In this document: positions 11,460 to 21,014 of the stretch, piece by piece | How the letters are laid out: each line of letters starts with the position of its first letter | Numbering within the stretch: the first letter of the stretch is position 1 | Source of the DNA: Escherichia coli O157:H7 | GTDB taxonomy: Bacteria; Pseudomonadota; Gammaproteobacteria; Enterobacterales; Enterobacteriaceae | Reading direction: 5' to 3' (one strand) | NCBI RefSeq assembly: GCF_013167455.1 | Contig: NZ_CP038328.1 | DNA length: 64,000 nucleotides | The notes under the pieces: model-generated | What the model saw: only the letters and a program-made list of their open reading frames with translations | Told to the model about the DNA's origin: nothing | The model's database searches: none | Made by a program: the position numbers and the translations under genes

Positions 11460-11722
11460 ATATTGCCGGATAAATTAAACGCCTCTGTCAGTAATGATGG
11501 GGGCGTTTTTATTTTGCGAGCAGCATTCCTGATTTTAAACGTGAACGCCGCTGGAAGAATTATCAGGTATAGAATGGCGTCGGGTGCTTGAGGCTGTCTG
11601 GCGTTAAGCATTCGCGAGGTTCCAGATGGACAAAAGCCCCAGGCGATATTTCTATCAACCTGAGGCTCGCGTTCGAACGTAGCAATTCGGATGTTAGTCT
11701 CTTCTTTGCAGGGAGGCAAGAC

Positions 11723-11875
11723 ATGCTAACAAAATATGCCCTTGTGGCAATCATAGTACTGTGTTGTACAGTACTGGGATTCACGCTCATGGTAGGCGAC
11801 TCGTTATGTGAGTTGAGTATCAGAGAGCGTGGTATGGAGTTTAAGGCAGTTCTCGCTTACGAATCGAAGAAGTAG
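11723..11875 (+). CDS. Hok/Gef-family type I toxin (small membrane peptide), hokX-like position
   Basis: 50-aa [53 protein letters not shown]; Hok-like TM segment plus SLCE...AYE motif; GC stem-loop follows. Confidence 0.7.
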
Positions 11876-11880
11876 CCACC

Positions 11881-11902
11881 ACGCGGGGGTAAAACCCCGC
11901 GT
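11881..11902 (+). terminator. stem-loop at 3' end of hok-like transcript
   Basis: acgcgggggtaaaaccccgcgt inverted repeat. Confidence 0.4.
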
Positions 11903-12066
11903 ATTGAATTGTGATGGTTTGGTCTCCTGTACCCTTTTTTAAATTTATATTTTTTATGTGAATATATAGTCTCTATTTATCATTATGAATTTCAAATGAA
12001 AATCATTAATTTATTCATAATATAAATGTTTATTGGCTGATATATATCACAGATAATTTTTAAAAT

Positions 12067-14766
12067 ATGCGTAAATATCCTTTAAGTTTACTGAAGGATA
12101 AAAATATTGTGACTTTCTTTGATTTCTGGGGAAAAACCCGACGTGGCGAGAAAGAGGGTGGCGACGGCTATCACCTTCTTTGCTGGCATTCGCTGGATGT
12201 GGCCGCAATGGGCTATTTAATGGTTAAAAGAAATTGCTTCGGGCTGGCTGATTACTTTCGTCAATTAGGGATTTCTGACAAGGAACAGGCGGCTCAATTT
12301 TTCGCTTGGTTGCTGTGCTGGCACGATATTGGAAAATTTGCCCGCTCTTTTCAGCAACTTTACCTGGCCCCTGAACTCAAGATTCCGGAAGGTTCCAGAA
12401 AGAATTACGAAAAGATCTCTCATTCAACGCTGGGTTACTGGCTGTGGAATTATTATTTAAGTGAATGTGAGGAGTTGCTTCCTTCATCTTCACTCTCTTC
12501 TCGTAAACTTACACGTGTAATAGAGATGTGGATGTCCATAACTACCGGGCATCATGGTCGACCACCTGACCGTATTGATGAGCTGGATAATTTTCTGCCT
12601 GAAGACAAAGCTGCCGCGCGAGATTTTCTCCTTGAAATCAAGGCACTGTTTCCGCTCATAGAGATTCCCACATTCTGGGATGATGACGAGGGCGTTGAAC
12701 TTTTAAAACAACTTTCCTGGTATATCTCTGCAACAGTCGTACTCGCAGACTGGACGGGTTCGTCAACGCGATTTTTTCCACGCGTCGCACACCCAATGGA
12801 TATTAAAGATTACTGGCAGAAAACTTTAGTTCAGGCTCAAAACGCCTTAACCGTCTTTCCTCCAAAAGCAGAAACCGCACCTTTCACCGGAATTAATACG
12901 CTGTTTCCTTTTATTGAGCACCCGACACCATTACAGCAAAAGGTACTGGATCTGGATATCAGCCAGCCAGGGCCACAGTTATTTATTCTGGAAGACGTGA
13001 CTGGCGCAGGTAAAACAGAAGCGGCGCTTATCCTGGCGCACAGGTTGATGGCTGCGAGGAAAGCACAGGGTTTGTTTTTTGGCCTGCCAACAATGGCAAC
13101 GGCCAATGCCATGTACGATCGGCTGGTCAAAACCTGGCTTGCTTTCTATTCGCCAGAGTCCCGCCCCAGCTTGGTGCTGGCACACAGTGCCCGCACATTA
13201 ATGGACCGCTTCAATGAATCACTCTGGTCCGGTGATTTAGTCGGGTCAGAAGAACCGGATGAACAAACATTCAGTCAGGGATGTGCGGCCTGGTTTGCCA
13301 ACAGTAACAAGAAGGCGCTACTGGCTGAAATTGGCGTCGGCACGCTGGATCAGGCGATGATGGCAGTGATGCCGTTTAAACATAATAATCTGCGGCTTCT
13401 GGGGTTGAGTAACAAAATCCTGCTGGCTGATGAGATCCATGCCTGTGATGCTTACATGTCGTGCATTCTTGAAGGGCTGATCGAGCGGCAGGCGCGTGGC
13501 GGAAACAGCGTCATTTTGCTTTCTGCTACGTTATCCCAACAGCAGCGCGACAAACTCGTCGCCGCCTTTGCGCGTGGCACAGAGGGCCAGCAAGAAGCTC
13601 CGTTCCTTGAAAAGGATGATTACCCCTGGCTGACGCATGTCACGAAATCCGATGTGAACTCACACCGGGTAGCGACGCGCAAAGACGTTGAGCGTAGCGT
13701 CAGCGTGGGTTGGCTTCATAGTGAACAAGAGAGTATTGCGCGTATCGAATCGGCGGTAAGTCAGGGAAAATGCATCGCCTGGATCCGGAATTCTGTCGAT
13801 GACGCTATTAAGGTTCATCGTCAGCTGCTTGCCCGCGGCGTCATTCCCGCTTCCAGCCTTTCACTCTTTCATAGCCGCTTTGCTTTTAGCGATCGCCAGC
13901 GAATTGAAATGGAGACGCTGGCACGCTTTGGTAAAGAAGACGGTTCACAGCGTGCCGGAAAAGTCCTCATTTGTACTCAGGTCTTAGAGCAGAGCGTTGA
14001 TTGTGACCTGGACGAAATGATCTCCGACCTGGCCCCTGTTGATTTGCTGATTCAGCGAGCGGGGCGATTACAGCGGCATATCCGCGATATTAATGGTCAG
14101 TTAAAGCGTGACGGAAAAGACGAGCGTTCCCCTCCTGAATTGCTGATTCTGGCCCCCGTCTGGGACGACGCTCCTGGTGACGAATGGTTCGGCAGTGCCA
14201 TGCGTAACAGTGCATATGTCTATCCCGATCATGGACGAATCTGGCTGACGCAGCGTGTACTGCGTGAGCAAGGCGCTATTCAAATGCCACACGCAGCCCG
14301 CCTTCTTATTGAATCAGTCTACGGTGAGGACGTGGTAATGCCGGAAGGATTTGCCCGCAGCGAGCAGGAGCAAGTGGGCAAATATTACTGCGATCGCGCA
14401 ATGGCTAAAAAGTTTGTCCTGAACTTCAAGCCTGGCTATGCCGCCAATATCAACGATTACCTTCCGGAAAAGCTGTCGACACGTCTGGCTGAGGAATCTG
14501 TTTCCCTGTGGCTGGCTACCTGTATTGCCGGTGTGGTGAAGCCTTATGCCACCGGTGCTCACGCATGGGAAATGAGCGTTGTCAGAGTGCGTCGAAGCTG
14601 GTGGAAAAAACATCGGGATGAGTTTTCTTTACTGGAAGGGGAAGCGTTCAGGCAGTGGTGCATTGAACAGCGGCAAGATCCGGAAATGGCAAACGTGATT
14701 TTAGTCACTGATGACGAAAGTTGCGGGTATTCGGCCAGGGAGGGATTGATTGGCAAGGTTGATTGA
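12067..14766 (+). CDS. cas3: Cas3 HD nuclease/helicase (type I-E)
   Basis: 899-aa ORF; HD motif (LLCWHDIGKF), Walker A (GAGKTEAA), DEIH; alternative GTG start at 12109 possible. Confidence 0.9.
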   Translation: MRKYPLSLLKDKNIVTFFDFWGKTRRGEKEGGDGYHLLCWHSLDVAAMGYLMVKRNCFGLADYFRQLGISDKEQAAQFFAWLLCWHDIGKFARSFQQLYLAPELKIPEGSRKNYEKISHSTLGYWLWNYYLSECEELLPSSSLSSRKLTRVIEMWMSITTGHHGRPPDRIDELDNFLPEDKAAARDFLLEIKALFPLIEIPTFWDDDEGVELLKQLSWYISATVVLADWTGSSTRFFPRVAHPMDIKDYWQKTLVQAQNALTVFPPKAETAPFTGINTLFPFIEHPTPLQQKVLDLDISQPGPQLFILEDVTGAGKTEAALILAHRLMAARKAQGLFFGLPTMATANAMYDRLVKTWLAFYSPESRPSLVLAHSARTLMDRFNESLWSGDLVGSEEPDEQTFSQGCAAWFANSNKKALLAEIGVGTLDQAMMAVMPFKHNNLRLLGLSNKILLADEIHACDAYMSCILEGLIERQARGGNSVILLSATLSQQQRDKLVAAFARGTEGQQEAPFLEKDDYPWLTHVTKSDVNSHRVATRKDVERSVSVGWLHSEQESIARIESAVSQGKCIAWIRNSVDDAIKVHRQLLARGVIPASSLSLFHSRFAFSDRQRIEMETLARFGKEDGSQRAGKVLICTQVLEQSVDCDLDEMISDLAPVDLLIQRAGRLQRHIRDINGQLKRDGKDERSPPELLILAPVWDDAPGDEWFGSAMRNSAYVYPDHGRIWLTQRVLREQGAIQMPHAARLLIESVYGEDVVMPEGFARSEQEQVGKYYCDRAMAKKFVLNFKPGYAANINDYLPEKLSTRLAEESVSLWLATCIAGVVKPYATGAHAWEMSVVRVRRSWWKKHRDEFSLLEGEAFRQWCIEQRQDPEMANVILVTDDESCGYSAREGLIGKVD

Positions 14767-14863
14767 GATACCTGCGACAGGACTCTCTGAATAGTTGATA
14801 CACCGAAAAGGATGGAATGATGGACAACCGACCAGGGATGGTCTTTTTTACGAGAGGATACAT

Positions 14864-16426
14864 ATGAACTCGTTTTCACTTCTGACAACCCCGTGGTTGC
14901 CCGTTCGTTTTAAAGACGGAACAACAGGCAAGCTGGCGCCAGTCGATCTGGCGGATGAAAATGTTGTCGATATCGCTGCGCCGCGGGCAGATCTCCAGGG
15001 GGCGGCATGGCAGTTTTTGCTGGGGTTACTACAAAGCAGTTTCGCGCCAAAAGATTATCGTCGTTGGGATGATATCTGGGAAGACGGGCTGGAAGCTGAA
15101 AAGCTACGGGAAGCATTGCTGTCATTAGAACACCCTTTCCAGTTTGGCCCAGATTCACCTTCATTTATGCAGGATTTCGAGGTGCTCATGGGCGATAAAG
15201 TTCAGGTCGCTTCGCTACTGCCTGAGATTCCCGGCGCTCAAACAACGAAGTTTAATAAAGACCACTTTATTAAGCGTGGCGTGACTGAACACGTATGCTC
15301 TCATTGTTCTGCGTTAGCTCTGTTCTCCCTACAGTTAAATGCGCCGTCAGGTGGCAAAGGCTATCGCACCGGTTTACGCGGCGGTGGGCCGATGACGACT
15401 CTGATTGAATTGCAGGAGTATCAGGGTAATCAACAAGCCCCCTTGTGGCGCAAACTGTGGCTCAACGTGATGCCGCAGGATGAAGCCGACTTACCGCTAC
15501 CCAAAAAATTTGACGATCTGGTTTTCCCCTGGCTTGGCCCGACGCGTACCAGCGAACTGGCCGGTGCGGTGGTAACCGATGATCAGGTCAATAAACTCCA
15601 GGCGTACTGGGGAATGCCGCGGCGTATTCGTATTGATTTTAATACCACGACAGTCGGCAACTGCGATATTTGCGGTGAGCAGAGTGACGCGCTTCTGAGT
15701 TTGATGACTACCAAAAATTACGGTGCGAATTATGCCATGTGGCAGCATCCCTTAACGCCTTACCGTGTACCACTTAAAGAGGGCGGTGAGTTTTACTCCG
15801 TTAAACCACAACCGGGCGGTTTAATCTGGCGCGACTGGTTAGGCCTTATCGAAACGGGTAAGTCAGAAAACAATACGGAACTTCCCGCGCTGGTGGTGAA
15901 ACTCTTTAATGCCAGCAGTCTGAAACAGGCAAAAGTGGGCCTGTGGGGATTTGGTTATGATTTCGACAACATGAAAGCGCGCTGTTGGTACGAACACCAT
16001 TTCCCGCTGCTGCTCAATAAAAAAGAAGGCCAGATACCGAAGCTGCGGCTGGCTGCGCAAACGGCTTCACGGATTCTGAGTCTGTTACGGAGTGCATTGA
16101 AAGAAGCATGGTTCTCCGATCCAAAAGGTGCAAGGGGTGATTTCAGTTTTGTGGATATCGACTTCTGGAACAAAACTCAGCATCGCTTCCTGAGGTTAGT
16201 GCGCCAAATTGAAGAAGGTCAGGATGCGGATGAATTACTCGGCAAATGGCAAAAGGAAATTTGGTTATTCGCACGTCAGGATTTTGACGAGCGTGTATTC
16301 ACCAATCCTTATGAGCCCGTTGATTTGGAACGCGTCATGACCGCGCGCAAGAAATATTTTACAACATCGGCGGAGAAGCAAAGTGCTAAAGCCGCCAGGG
16401 AGAAAAAGCAGGAGGCTGCTGAATGA
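14864..16426 (+). CDS. casA: Cascade large subunit Cse1/CasA
   Basis: ORF 14795..16426; ATG 14864 after GAGAGGA; first gene after cas3. Confidence 0.85.
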   Translation: MNSFSLLTTPWLPVRFKDGTTGKLAPVDLADENVVDIAAPRADLQGAAWQFLLGLLQSSFAPKDYRRWDDIWEDGLEAEKLREALLSLEHPFQFGPDSPSFMQDFEVLMGDKVQVASLLPEIPGAQTTKFNKDHFIKRGVTEHVCSHCSALALFSLQLNAPSGGKGYRTGLRGGGPMTTLIELQEYQGNQQAPLWRKLWLNVMPQDEADLPLPKKFDDLVFPWLGPTRTSELAGAVVTDDQVNKLQAYWGMPRRIRIDFNTTTVGNCDICGEQSDALLSLMTTKNYGANYAMWQHPLTPYRVPLKEGGEFYSVKPQPGGLIWRDWLGLIETGKSENNTELPALVVKLFNASSLKQAKVGLWGFGYDFDNMKARCWYEHHFPLLLNKKEGQIPKLRLAAQTASRILSLLRSALKEAWFSDPKGARGDFSFVDIDFWNKTQHRFLRLVRQIEEGQDADELLGKWQKEIWLFARQDFDERVFTNPYEPVDLERVMTARKKYFTTSAEKQSAKAAREKKQEAAE

Positions 16427-16959
16427 GTATTGTAAAAGAGGAGCACAAAGCCACGCTGCGCAAATGGCATGAGGAATTGCAGGAGAAACGCGGCGAACGT
16501 GCCAGTCTGCGGCGTAGTACGACGGTTAATGATGTTTGTCTGACGGATGGATTTCGCCTGTTTCTGAAGAACAGACAAATAAAGTGGCAGGATGAACCTG
16601 AATGGCGTATTACCGCACTGGCGCTGATAGCCGCACTTAGCGCTAATGTTAAAGCCATTGATGAACGGCTGCCTTTTGCTGCGCAGCTGGCGGCGGTAAT
16701 GTCAAAGGGGCGTTTTACTCGCCTGTCGGCAGTAAAAACACCGGATGAATTACTGCGCCAGTTACGCCGCGTAGTCAGATTATTAAACGGTTCCGTTAAT
16801 CTTGACTCTCTGGCAGAGGGTGTCTTCCGCTGGTGCCAGGAGAGCGACGATCTGCTCAATCATCACCGCCGTCATCAGCGGCCAACCGAATTTATCCGTA
16901 TCCGCTGGGCGCTGGAATATTACCAGGCTGGCGACGTCGATAACGAACAAAATCAATAA
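16423..16959 (+). CDS. casB: Cascade small subunit Cse2/CasB
   Basis: 178-aa ORF; ATGA overlap with casA. Confidence 0.8.
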   Translation: MSIVKEEHKATLRKWHEELQEKRGERASLRRSTTVNDVCLTDGFRLFLKNRQIKWQDEPEWRITALALIAALSANVKAIDERLPFAAQLAAVMSKGRFTRLSAVKTPDELLRQLRRVVRLLNGSVNLDSLAEGVFRWCQESDDLLNHHRRHQRPTEFIRIRWALEYYQAGDVDNEQNQ

Positions 16960-16970
16960 AGGACTATCTC

Positions 16971-18026
16971 ATGACGACATTTATTCAGCTTCATTTGTTA
17001 ACCGCTTACCCTGCAGCCAACCTTAACCGTGATGACACCGGAGCGCCGAAAACCGTGGTCCTGGGTGGAGCAACGCGACTGCGCGTTTCCTCGCAAAGTC
17101 TGAAACGTGCGTGGCGCACTTCTGCACTTTTTGAACAGGCACTGGCGGGCCATATTGGTATTCGCAGTGGGCGTATTGCGCGTGAGGCGGCAACTATCCT
17201 GATTGAGAAAGGCATCGAAGAGAAAAAAGCCATCGAATGGGCGGCAAAAATTGCGGATTATCTTGGGAAAGCTAAAAACGACAAAAAACCAAAAGATCCG
17301 CTCACTAACGCCGAAACTGAACAATTAGTCCATATCAGCCCGGCAGAATTTGACGCCGTAAAAGCGCTGGCCCATCAACTGGCCGAAGAAAAGCGCGCGC
17401 CAAAAGAGGAAGATCTCGCTTTGTTACGTAAAGATCGCATGGCAGTAGATATCGCTATGTTTGGTCGTATGCTGGCGAATAAACCCGAATTTAATGTTGA
17501 AGCCGCCTGCCAGGTCGCGCATGCATTTGGTGTCAGTGAAACGATTGTCGAAGATGATTTTTTCACCGCCGTTGATGATTTGCGCCAGGCTTCTGAAGAT
17601 GCCGGTGCCGGGCATCTTGGTGAAACCGGATTCGGTTCTGCGCTGTTCTACACCTATATCTGCATCGATAAAGATCTGCTGGTCGAAAACCTCGGCGGTG
17701 ACGAAGCGTTAGCTAATCAGACCTTGCGCGCCTTTACGGAAGCCGCACTTAAAGTCTCCCCAACCGGCAAACAGAACAGCTTTGCCAGCCGTGCCTACGC
17801 CTCCTGGGCGCTGGCAGAAAAAGGCACCGAACAACCACGTTCTCTGGCGGCGGCTTTCTATGAACCCATTAATGGCACCCGGCAGTTAGATGTGGCGGTG
17901 CAGCGTATTACAACGCTTCGCGAAAATATGAATACGGTCTATGAACAGAAGACCGAATGCGCAAGCTTTGACGTGATGAACAAACAGGGAAGCATGAAGG
18001 ACGTGCTGGACTTTATCTGCGCGTAA
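16971..18026 (+). CDS. casC: Cascade backbone Cas7/CasC
   Basis: 351-aa ORF; operon position. Confidence 0.85.
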   Translation: MTTFIQLHLLTAYPAANLNRDDTGAPKTVVLGGATRLRVSSQSLKRAWRTSALFEQALAGHIGIRSGRIAREAATILIEKGIEEKKAIEWAAKIADYLGKAKNDKKPKDPLTNAETEQLVHISPAEFDAVKALAHQLAEEKRAPKEEDLALLRKDRMAVDIAMFGRMLANKPEFNVEAACQVAHAFGVSETIVEDDFFTAVDDLRQASEDAGAGHLGETGFGSALFYTYICIDKDLLVENLGGDEALANQTLRAFTEAALKVSPTGKQNSFASRAYASWALAEKGTEQPRSLAAAFYEPINGTRQLDVAVQRITTLRENMNTVYEQKTECASFDVMNKQGSMKDVLDFICA

Positions 18027-18036
18027 GGGGCGGCTA

Positions 18037-18783
18037 ATGAGCCAATATTTGATTTTTCAGCTTCATGGGCCAATGGCATCCTGGGGCGTCGATGCCCCCG
18101 GCGAAGTGCGTCATACCCATGAACTGCCTTCGCGCTCAGCATTGCTGGGGCTGCTGGCTGCCGGGGTAGGGATTCGGCGTGATGATACCGAACGATTAAA
18201 CGCGTTTAACCGCCACTATTCACTGGTGGTTTGCGCCAGCCGTAACCCGCGCTGGGCACGGGATTATCACACGGTCCAGATGCCAAAAGAGGTGCGTAAA
18301 GCGCGTTATTTCAGCCGTCGCGAAGAGTTGAGCGCCCCTGATCTTCTGAGCGCGATTATCTCCCGGCGCGACTACTACACCGATGCCTGGTGGATGGTGG
18401 CGGTGGCAACAACCCCCGATGCGCCTTACAGCCTTGAACAGTTGCAGGACGGTTTACGTCATCCGGTTTTTCCGCTTTATCTGGGGCGAAAAAGTCATCC
18501 GCTGGCGTTACCACTTGCGCCGTTACTGCTCGAAGGCAACGCGTCTGATGTCTTACGTAACGCATACCAACAGTATCAGGATAGTTTCCGCGAACTGAAA
18601 GTCTCACTCCCGAAACTTCAGGATGAATGCTGGTGGGAAGGGGAACACGACGGCCTGGTCGCGAGCAAAATATTACGTCGCCGGGATGTTCCTTTAAATC
18701 GTCAGCAGTGGCTGTTTGGGGAACGCACCATCAATCAGGGGCCGTGGCTCAGCAAGGAGGAACCATGTACCTCTCAAGAATAA
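18037..18783 (+). CDS. casD: Cas5/CasD
   Basis: 248-aa ORF; operon position. Confidence 0.8.
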   Translation: MSQYLIFQLHGPMASWGVDAPGEVRHTHELPSRSALLGLLAAGVGIRRDDTERLNAFNRHYSLVVCASRNPRWARDYHTVQMPKEVRKARYFSRREELSAPDLLSAIISRRDYYTDAWWMVAVATTPDAPYSLEQLQDGLRHPVFPLYLGRKSHPLALPLAPLLLEGNASDVLRNAYQQYQDSFRELKVSLPKLQDECWWEGEHDGLVASKILRRRDVPLNRQQWLFGERTINQGPWLSKEEPCTSQE

Positions 18784-19411
18784 CCTTACATACCGGCCAG
18801 CTTTCGCCTGCGCAGTTGCTGCATTTGGTGGATCGCGGGGAATATGTGATGCATCAGTGGCTGTGGGATCTCTTCCCTGGCGGCAAAGAAAGGCAATTTC
18901 TTTATCGTCGGGAAGAACTCCAGGGCGCGTTTCGCTTTTTTGTACTGTCGCAGGAACGCCCGGCGGAAAGTGAAACGTTCACCATCGAATGCCGGTCATT
19001 TGTGCCCGAGCTGCGTACCGGACAACAACTTTGTTTCAACCTGCGGGCGAATCCAACAATCTGTAAAGCGGGCAAGCGCCACGATCTGCTGATGGAGGCG
19101 AAACGGCAGGTGAGGGGGCAGGCGGAAGGAAGTGATGTCTGGTTGCATCAACAACAGGCGGCGCTGGACTGGCTGGCAGCGCAGGGGGAGAGAAGCGGTT
19201 TTACACTGCTGGATACCTCGGTTGATGCCTACCGACAACAGCAACTGCGGCGGGAAAACTCCCGGCAACTGATCCAGTTCAGTAGCGTGGATTATACGGG
19301 GATGCTTACGGTCACCGATCCCGGGTTATTTCTGCAACGTCTCAGTCAGGGGTATGGCAAAAGCCGCGCGTTCGGCTGTGGTCTGATGCTGATCAAACCC
19401 GGAGCAGAGGT

Positions 19412-19415
<4 letters not shown>
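18765..19415 (+). CDS. casE: Cas6e/CasE crRNA endoribonuclease
   Basis: ORF 18627..19415; ATG 18765 after AAGGAGG; 216 aa. Confidence 0.85.
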
Positions 19416-20625
<1,210 letters not shown>

Positions 20626-20720
20626 GTTATGTGTTCTTTAAAAATAAGGAAATGTTTGAATTTAGTTGGTAGATTGTTGATGTGGAATAAATTTGTTTAA
20701 AAACAGATATGTATGCTTAG
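20626..20720 (+). promoter_or_regulatory. CRISPR leader (AT-rich)
   Basis: 95-bp AT-rich stretch between cas2 stop and first repeat. Confidence 0.7.
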
Positions 20721-20993
20721 TGTGTTCCCCGCGCCAGCGGGGATAAACCGTCACCAAAACAGTGACAAAAACTGTCACCAAAGTGTTCCCCGCGCCAGCG
20801 GGGATAAACCGCTCATATTCGGATTGATCGTGTGTTTCGGTTTGTGTTCCCCGCGCCAGCGGGGATAAACCGGCCCAGGGATTTGTTCAATCCAGCGTGC
20901 CGCTGTGTTCCCCGCATCAGCGGGGATAAACCGGGCGCACTGGATGCGATGATGGATATCACTTAGAATTCCCCGCCCCTGCGGTAGAACACC
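20721..20993 (+). CRISPR. Type I-E CRISPR array: 4 full 29-bp repeats, four 32-bp spacers, degenerate terminal repeat
   Basis: Repeat GTGTTCCCCGCGCCAGCGGGGATAAACCG at 20721, 20782, 20843; variant at 20904 (GCATCA loop); degenerate copy 20965..20993. Confidence 0.95.
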
Positions 20994-21014
20994 CAGCTCC
21001 CATTTTCCAACCCA

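Follow-up and report, generated by a model that had tools for sequence, protein, structure and literature searches.

Which CRISPR-Cas system does Escherichia coli O157:H7 carry, and how much of what has been learned from K-12 applies to it? In the window, that is, the whole 64,000-nt stretch of O157:H7 chromosome analysed here, positions 12067-20994 hold eight intact cas genes, a 96-bp leader and an array with five repeats and four spacers. This locus is almost certainly a CRISPR-Cas system of type I-E, belonging to the variant named cas-EO in E. coli O157:H7, seated at the conserved site between cysH and iap. Literature of 2010-2013 already covers the locus, how far it diverges from K-12 and what the variant is called, and nothing about them is new.

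Gene content and integrity of the locus

The genes follow one another as cas3, casA/cse1, casB/cse2, cas7e, cas5e, cas6e, cas1e and cas2e, all on the plus strand and uninterrupted, with the order cse1-cse2-cas7-cas5-cas6e and then cas1e-cas2e that characterizes type I-E. Each protein passes the curated NCBIfam I-E cut-offs over nearly the full profile, Cas3 doing so with models of its core and of its HD domain. All 8927 bases at positions 12067-20993 agree with E. coli O157:H7 chromosomes (100% identity), and the RefSeq annotation of these chromosomes lists the same eight genes, intact, with identical starts and without a pseudogene flag. Profiles, full-length open reading frames and RefSeq thus agree with a preliminary description of this DNA, which had proposed a complete type I-E locus with eight intact genes.

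The first gene, cas3 (12067-14766), encodes a protein of 899 aa with an HD nuclease and an SF2 helicase (TIGR01587, 217 bits; TIGR01596, 92 bits; both above cut-off). Its HD, Walker A, DEIH and SAT motifs retain their conserved residues (H86, D87, K90, K316, D455-E-I-H458, S486 and T488), and its nearest solved structures are those of type I-E Cas3 (4Q2C, 4QQW). The large Cascade subunit is encoded by casA/cse1 (cas8e; 14864-16426; 520 aa), which reaches 620 bits with TIGR02547 (cut-off 70) and covers profile positions 1-504 of 504, and the small subunit by casB/cse2 (cas11e; 16423-16959; 178 aa; TIGR02548, 98.6 bits, cut-off 28.5). There follow cas7e/casC for the Cascade backbone subunit (16971-18026; 351 aa; TIGR01869, 448 bits), cas5e/casD (18037-18783; 248 aa; TIGR01868, 160 bits) and cas6e/casE for the pre-crRNA endoribonuclease (18765-19415 with the start taken from RefSeq; 216 aa; TIGR01907, 292 bits), in which the catalytic histidine, H20 in K-12, is present as H30. 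The adaptation genes complete the set: the integrase gene cas1e (19412-20335; 307 aa; TIGR03638, 380 bits) begins with GTG and its product retains E141, H208, D218 and D221, while cas2e (20332-20625; 97 aa; TIGR01873, 134 bits) encodes a protein with a conserved E9. Catalytic residues are thereby kept in Cas3, Cas1, Cas2 and Cas6e alike.

How tightly are these genes packed? Overlapping junctions had been described throughout from casA onward, which holds for four of the six (casA/casB, cas6e/cas1 and cas1/cas2, 4 bp each; cas5/cas6e, 19 bp) and fails for casB-cas7 and cas7-cas5, where gaps of 11 bp and 10 bp separate the genes. The end of the locus, earlier placed at 20993, shifts by one base, as the degenerate terminal repeat in fact ends at 20994.

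Divergence from K-12 and place among known variants

In subtype, gene order, catalytic residues and position between cysH and iap, the locus is like the type I-E system of K-12 (cas-EK; Cascade structures 4QYZ, 4TVX and 5H9F), the O157:H7 genes lying between cysH-hok/sok and iap. The proteins themselves fall into two classes. Identity to K-12 MG1655 is low for the effectors, namely 31.5% for Cas3, 23.4% for CasA, 24% for CasB (alignable over 54 residues only), 32.6% for Cas7, 35.0% for Cas5 and 31.2% for Cas6e, and reaches 84.3% for Cas1 and 86.2% for Cas2. This bears out the earlier claim that Cas3 and Cascade are far from K-12 and Cas1 much closer (23-35% versus 84-86% by protein alignment). 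In blastn, positions 11726-19423 gave no similarity to K-12, the divergence beginning at a left boundary at 11725.

An operon that is K-12-like, or one that has decayed through overlooked frameshifts, would be the obvious alternative, and we give it virtually no probability. Nothing counts in its favour: even Cas1 and Cas2 remain far below the 99% seen for the flanking genes (CysH 99.2% and Iap 98.8% identical). Near-identity to K-12, named in the preliminary description as evidence that would tell against it, is absent from the effectors, and the two K-12-specific models score well under their cut-offs (NF007248, 427 bits versus 569; NF007247, 103.5 versus 576). Neither mark of cas-EK, near-identical cas3-casABCDE and K-12-model scores above cut-off, is found. 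Frameshifts, the other feature named there, are likewise absent, each open reading frame being full length and matching an unflagged RefSeq protein. Protein identities, K-12 model scores, blastn and the full-length RefSeq frames together exclude such an operon. The converse idea, that K-12 is itself an outlier on generic I-E models, is unsupported, for the K-12 proteins score alike on the generic TIGRFAM models.

By comparison, the following features of cas-EO are present: highly divergent Cas3 and Cascade, Cas1 and Cas2 at about 85% to K-12, a repeat with GTG and a leader unlike that of K-12. This variant, along with its leader-A and CRISPR-A repeats, was defined on O157:H7, its type strain (Díez-Villaseñor 2013, PMC3737337); in 2025 it was described afresh under the name 'var. 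B-8552' (PMC12736100). Gene order, gene lengths, K-12 identities and repeat type are all the same as those of the O157:H7 locus, without any difference; Table 1 of the latter paper gives the same K-12 identities and the same lengths of 2700/1563/537/1056/747/651/924/294 bp. The earlier suggestion of a second I-E variant in E. coli is thus borne out.

Could the variant have come from Salmonella? Salmonella enterica cas-STY (serovar Senftenberg and subsp. houtenae; L006 and L005) is also of type I-E and occupies the same site by iap-cysDNC, and its Cas1 and Cas2 are 84-88% identical to those of the O157:H7 locus. Its effectors, however, are only 30-56% identical to those of O157:H7, its Cas1 is nearer to K-12 (93%), its cas3 runs divergently, next to an inserted sopD. 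The Salmonella loci examined were therefore rejected as a source of cas-EO, as they represent this third lineage. The other Salmonella type, cas-STM, has contiguous genes and is said to match many Escherichia systems (PMC7712790). Replacement among multiple cas lineages at one site has been described (PMC2886076).

Of 5426 complete E. coli genomes, 2428 (~45%) have the cas-EO Cascade genes, about twice as many as carry the K-12 variant (1121, ~21%). The finding is thus correct but ordinary, because it concerns an already described variant that outnumbers its K-12 counterpart in E. coli. The K-12 variant, on the other hand, is the source of nearly everything known about mechanism and regulation in E. 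coli type I-E. In a search of solved structures that covered CasA and Cas3, no close sequence relative of these two subunits was found; the best match of CasA was K-12 CasA, at an E-value of only 2e-15. Given that knowledge is dominated by K-12, and that no closely related structure was found for CasA and Cas3 of the commoner cas-EO, K-12 results on promoters, PAMs and anti-CRISPRs are not automatically safe to carry over to pathogenic E. coli.

The upstream region and transcription of the cas genes

Just outside the system, at 11582-11875 on the plus strand, lies a hok/sok type I toxin-antitoxin module with a Hok coding sequence at 11723-11875 (50 aa), recognized by the Rfam sok family (RF01794, 105 bits), NCBIfam Hok-family matches and the RefSeq name 'Hok/Gef family protein'. 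The hok coding sequence is present in O157:H7 and absent from K-12, and the left divergence boundary coincides with its start codon. Genomes without hok number 1205 and those with cas-EK 1183, two similar counts; if the two sets largely coincide, cas-EK may be the incoming replacement, with its breakpoints at hok and within the array. Might this module, or a hidden CreTA-like element, guard the locus against loss, as in Citrobacter rodentium and Haloarcula? The intact hok/sok stands 191 bp upstream of cas3, with the K-12 divergence boundary exactly at hok, and in C. rodentium a Cascade-repressed toxin sits in a 495-bp cas3-casA gap (PMC12055562). We nonetheless regard a guard as very improbable. 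The same hok occurs in ~4221 genomes, the cas-less strains UTI89 and BL21 included, and hence has no fixed association with the cas genes; it was rejected as a cas-linked guard. The CreTA-like form fares no better: a scan of 11400-20721 for CreA-like degenerate repeats gave 4 weak matches, no more than shuffled sequence can yield (mean 1.9, maximum 6), and the 97 bp between cas3 and casA leave too little room for a module of this kind.

Between hok/sok and cas3, positions 11930-12066 (plus strand) form an AT-rich tract of 137 bp with 16% GC, directly upstream of cas3, that holds the lowest-GC 100-bp windows of the locus and is kept in four other cas-EO strains. This composition and placement make the tract a candidate promoter and H-NS-type silencing region. 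In K-12, the AT-rich tract is found elsewhere, within the cas3-casA gap, which measures 414 bp there. In O157:H7 this spacer (14767-14863, plus strand) has exactly 97 bp, as the preliminary description had estimated, with 45% GC and a casA ribosome-binding site, GAGAGGA; in four other cas-EO strains it is of equal length and 97% conserved.

Does this layout mean that all eight genes form a single operon read from upstream of cas3, as the preliminary description suggested? If so, cas-EO may differ from K-12 in that a single transcription unit would cover all the genes, with silencing and activation both exerted at the 16%-GC tract, and Cas3 would be made together with Cascade and co-regulated with it, unlike in K-12 and Salmonella Typhi. 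We consider this a real possibility, though one with somewhat less than an even chance. The short gap of constant length speaks for it, as does its composition: the K-12 gap has 29.5% GC and carries Pcas, the promoter of the casA operon, whereas in O157:H7 very AT-rich tracts are limited to the 137 bp upstream of cas3 and the leader. Moreover, no sigma-70-like match was found on the plus strand from 13390 to casA. Such scans, however, let weak activator-dependent promoters escape, and the 97% conservation of the gap would equally fit an internal promoter or operator. A weak 5-bp hairpin followed by T6 lies at 14830-14849; the T6 is invariant and, 15 bp before the casA start, could attenuate read-through. 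A strong terminator or structured RNA is not supported for this gap: its fold is not unusually stable (z = -0.7), which counts in favour of a single operon, and the stem is not maintained by compensatory changes in the other strains. Against a single operon there is also the precedent of K-12 and S. Typhi, where cas3 is transcribed on its own (PMC3737337; PMC8039139). Searchable literature yielded no transcription or interference data for the O157/EHEC locus and no promoter map of cas-EO; in the EHEC phage paper, the cas genes used were those of K-12.

Array, spacers and activity

In type I-E systems, transcription of the array starts from an AT-rich leader, and the repeat hairpins are cut by Cas6e to give 61-nt crRNAs. 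A crRNA assembles with Cse1, Cse2, Cas7, Cas5 and Cas6e into Cascade, which finds PAM-flanked protospacers and recruits the nuclease-helicase Cas3 to degrade the DNA; new spacers are inserted at the leader-proximal repeat by Cas1-Cas2. Judged from its sequence, the O157:H7 locus would be competent for interference. Under laboratory conditions, it may be silenced by H-NS-type repression acting on the 16%-GC stretch that precedes cas3, and cas3 is possibly co-transcribed with the Cascade genes.

The leader of this locus ('leader-A'; 20626-20721, plus strand) comprises 96 bp with 25% GC and can be aligned to the 105-bp leader of K-12, with many substitutions. It is followed by the array (20722-20994, plus strand), whose repeats at 20722, 20783 and 20844 are perfect, whereas the one at 20905 has 2 mismatches (the CATCAG variant) and the terminal one at 20966 is degenerate. 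The repeat, GTGTTCCCCGCGCCAGCGGGGATAAACCG, is of the CRISPR-A type, 29 nt long with a 61-nt period. The K-12 repeat has the same length and period and differs at position 2 only (GAG in K-12, GTG here). The O157:H7 repeat folds into the canonical hairpin, its stem 7 bp and its loop 4 nt long (-15.2 kcal/mol, z = -3.2), and shuffled windows yielded no repeat matches at all. Five repeats at this period confirm the earlier count of four spacers, each of 32 nt (20751-20782, 20812-20843, 20873-20904 and 20934-20965). A search of the window for a second array or stray repeats returned just the four near-perfect repeats, which places the CRISPR II locus outside it.

Is the system still in use? The full set of four spacers recurs in 291 genomes. 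The oldest is common to ~4600, K-12 derivatives included, and the oldest repeat-spacer unit of the K-12 array is identical to that of O157:H7, the last one in the array. Such a short, clade-fixed array fits a system that seldom, if ever, adds spacers in the O157:H7 lineage. One could go further and regard the locus as a relic, intact in sequence yet inactive in O157:H7, silenced, non-acquiring and slowly losing spacers. The small and shared spacer set points this way, as does one O157:H7 genome in which the array spans 154 bp rather than 215, which fits spacer loss, and the tract preceding cas3 shares its AT-richness with H-NS targets. Arguing for function are the eight intact genes with their conserved catalytic residues, and the fact that ~45% of genomes have kept the genes intact speaks for selection. 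In addition, Cas1-Cas2 of O157:H7 supplied from a plasmid integrate spacers and prefer the motif CWT (PMC3737337), the published acquisition motif of cas-EO, that of K-12 being CTT. On balance, we put an inactive relic just short of an even chance.

As to what the array may have been directed against, the four listed genomes with all four spacers showed no self-targeting, the sole match being the array itself (E ≤ 0.1). Phage or plasmid targets were searched for spacers 3 and 4, and none was found. The sample for the protospacer motif CWT (AWG on the spacer strand) consists of two imperfect matches, too few to judge it by, of which spacer 2 alone has a usable flank. Spacer 1 matches a Proteus phage at 30 of 32 positions, preceded by TTG. 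For spacer 2 the match, likewise at 30 of 32 positions, lies in a major capsid gene of lambdoid type, and the protospacer is preceded by ATG (= CAT), as would be expected for cas-EO.

Gene content and identity of the variant

The CRISPR-Cas locus of type I-E at 12067-20994 is a well-described, common variant that is already known. Eight uninterrupted, co-oriented ORFs occupy 12067-20625 on the + strand: cas3 (12067-14766, 899 aa), casA/cse1 (14864-16426, 520 aa), casB/cse2 (16423-16959, 178 aa), cas7e (16971-18026, 351 aa), cas5e (18037-18783, 248 aa), cas6e (18765-19415, 216 aa), cas1e (19412-20335, 307 aa, GTG start) and cas2e (20332-20625, 97 aa). Each product scores above its curated NCBIfam type I-E family cut-off over approximately the full profile length—for Cas3, the models passed are those of the cas3 core and the HD domain—and RefSeq annotates the same eight genes, with the same starts, as intact on O157:H7 chromosomes. 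This bears out the eight intact genes of the preliminary description and rules out frameshifts missed by hand. Its coordinates, 12067-20993, were at most a single base off, the terminal repeat ending at 20994, but only four of the six junctions from casA onward overlap, not all, casB-cas7 and cas7-cas5 being separated by 11 and 10 bp. Catalytic residues are kept in Cas3 (HD domain H86, D87 and K90; Walker A K316; D455-E-I-H458; S486 and T488), Cas1 (E141, H208, D218, D221), Cas2 (E9) and Cas6e (H30).

When each protein was aligned to its MG1655 counterpart, identity was low for Cas3 (31.5%), CasA (23.4%), CasB (24%, with just 54 residues alignable), Cas7 (32.6%), Cas5 (35.0%) and Cas6e (31.2%), but much higher for Cas1 (84.3%) and Cas2 (86.2%); the flanking CysH and Iap reach 99.2% and 98.8%. 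K-12-specific models for Cas3 and CasA scored 427 and 103.5, below their cut-offs of 569 and 576. Near-identity to the K-12 operon is thus ruled out, and the earlier impression that Cas3 and Cascade lie far from K-12, with Cas1 much closer, proved right. Among solved structures, neither CasA nor Cas3 has a close relative: CasA matches K-12 CasA at E=2e-15 only, and the best match of Cas3 is Thermobaculum Cas3.

Touchon and Rocha (2010) divided the 'Ecoli' subtype of Escherichia and Salmonella into four groups by Cas1; trees of the other Cas proteins were largely alike, and they interpreted this as complete cas sets being transferred together (PMC2886076). Díez-Villaseñor et al. (2013) assigned cas-EK, with CRISPR-T repeat and leader-T, to K-12, and cas-EO, with CRISPR-A repeat and leader-A, to O157:H7, whose Cas1-Cas2 take up spacers from protospacers flanked by CTT and by CAT (PMC3737337). 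A 2025 survey re-described cas-EO as 'var. B-8552', with gene lengths and K-12 identities equal to those measured here (PMC12736100), so that the proposed second E. coli I-E variant is this published one. No report of expression or interference by the native O157:H7 locus was found in the searchable literature.

E. coli O157:H7 chromosomes match the stretch at 100% identity over 8927 bp. Counting genomes in which Cascade genes reach 80% or more query coverage, cas-EO is present in 2428 and the K-12 variant in 1121 out of 5426 complete E. coli genomes; the 'non-K-12-like' set is therefore the majority form. One true plasmid was found with a cas-EO casA, a truncated copy: pIOMTU792 (NZ_LC542972.1, 293 kb, E. 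coli) encodes residues 78-501 only, 96% identical, at 240729-242000. Since it also bears a CRISPR array, plasmids do harbour components of the system.

Two Salmonella loci, from S. enterica subsp. houtenae (L005) and serovar Senftenberg (L006), belong to a third lineage. Their cas3 is divergently oriented, unlike here, and their effector proteins share 30-56% identity with those of the window and 25-40% with those of K-12; CasB has no match to K-12, whereas Cas1 is 93% identical to it. The houtenae locus carries a RelE/Xre toxin-antitoxin pair between the divergent cas3 and cse1 (L005 4265-4704), which the Senftenberg locus is without.

The cas3-casA gap

The gap between cas3 and casA measures 97 bp, as previously described. 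Transcription of all eight cas genes as a single operon is plausible, yet we consider it short of probable. The gap has equal length and 97% conservation in four other cas-EO strains, although such conservation would also be compatible with an internal promoter. Its GC content is 45%, versus 29.5% in K-12, where the gap spans 414 bp and contains Pcas, the promoter of the casA operon. The gap shows no unusual structure (z = -0.7). Ahead of the casA start by 15 bp, however, there is a weak 5-bp hairpin with an invariant T6, which could attenuate read-through. No sigma-70-like site was seen on the + strand from 13390 as far as casA, and the locus has only two very AT-rich tracts, one of 137 bp upstream of cas3 (16% GC), the other the leader. 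K-12 and S. Typhi, however, transcribe cas3 separately (PMC3737337; PMC8039139).

In Citrobacter rodentium, a CreTA-like guard resides in a 495-bp cas3-casA gap (PMC12055562). Here such a guard is not supported: the 97-bp gap is too short for it, and a search of 11400-20721 for degenerate, CreA-like repeats returned none above chance. In two other E. coli strains with cas-EO genes, IS421 lies ~350 bp upstream of cas3 and replaces hok, leaving the AT-rich tract intact (L008 1-547; L009 1-546); one of the two strains has a cas3 with an internal stop, annotated as a pseudogene (L008 901-3600), the other cas genes being intact.

Boundaries of the divergent block

The locus shares its chromosomal site with that of K-12, in the order cysJIH, hok/sok, cas3 to cas2, array, iap (opposite strand) and cysDNC. 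By blastn, identity to K-12 is ~98% from cysI to 11725, where similarity ends after two bases of hok's start codon; none is found from there to cas1. It is ~71% across cas1, cas2 and leader, and high identity returns within the array. The fourth repeat (an unusual CATCAG variant with a GTG start; the other K-12 repeats begin GAG), spacer 4 and the degenerate terminal repeat (20905-20994) are common to both, so that on the right the swap of cas variants has its boundary inside the array. Spacer 4 occurs in ~4600 of 5426 complete genomes.

Between cysH and cas3 lies an intact hok/sok type I toxin-antitoxin (11582-11875; Rfam sok, 105 bits; Hok CDS 11723-11875, 50 aa), whereas K-12 keeps sokX and is missing the hok coding sequence. 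This hok is shared by ~4221 of 5426 genomes; 1205 are without it, a number near that of genomes with the K-12 cas variant (1183). From these observations we infer that hok with the cas-EO set may be the older arrangement, and that the K-12 set would be a replacement with breakpoints at hok and within the array. Such a replacement is in keeping with the exchange of entire cas sets that Touchon and Rocha proposed to occur through recombination in conserved flanking sequences such as the CRISPR (PMC2886076). A link of hok/sok to the cas genes is ruled out, as cas-less UTI89 and BL21 carry the same hok. Immediately 3' of cysH, a hairpin with a 14-bp stem followed by a T run (11477-11517) is probably the cysJIH terminator, and probably caused the weak Rfam match there (ctRNA_p42d, 26 bits, under threshold).

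Array and spacers

Directly after cas2 comes the leader (96 bp, 25% GC), then five 29-nt repeats with a 61-nt period—the first three are perfect, the fourth has two mismatches and the terminal one is degenerate—confirming an array of only four spacers, each 32 nt. Shuffles of the window gave zero repeat matches. The repeat, GTGTTCC..., i.e. ...GGGGAACAC, is of the CRISPR-A type, whereas that of K-12 has GAG; it folds into a 7-bp stem with a 4-nt loop, as expected for a Cas6e substrate.

The spacers' matches fit an anti-phage origin. Spacer 1 (20751-20782), internally palindromic, matches at 30/32 positions the replication protein O gene of the lambdoid-type Proteus phage vB_BPM-V3 (L003 581-660), with the flanking motif TTG. 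As this match sits in a run of four similar iteron-like repeats (TCACCAAAnCnGTGnCA), spacer 1 looks derived from a lambdoid replication origin. Spacer 2 (20812-20843) matches, also at 30/32 positions, the major capsid protein gene of lambdoid E. coli phages (L004 601-644), and that of several E. coli prophages; the match is preceded by ATG, which equals the CAT motif reported for cas-EO. For spacers 3 and 4, no phage or plasmid target was found. There was no sign of self-targeting, each of four listed genomes with all four spacers having a single matching place. The complete set of four spacers is found in 291 genomes, and a single O157:H7 genome has apparently lost a spacer. This is in line with published work, which sees deletion, not acquisition, as the way in which O157:H7 arrays change.
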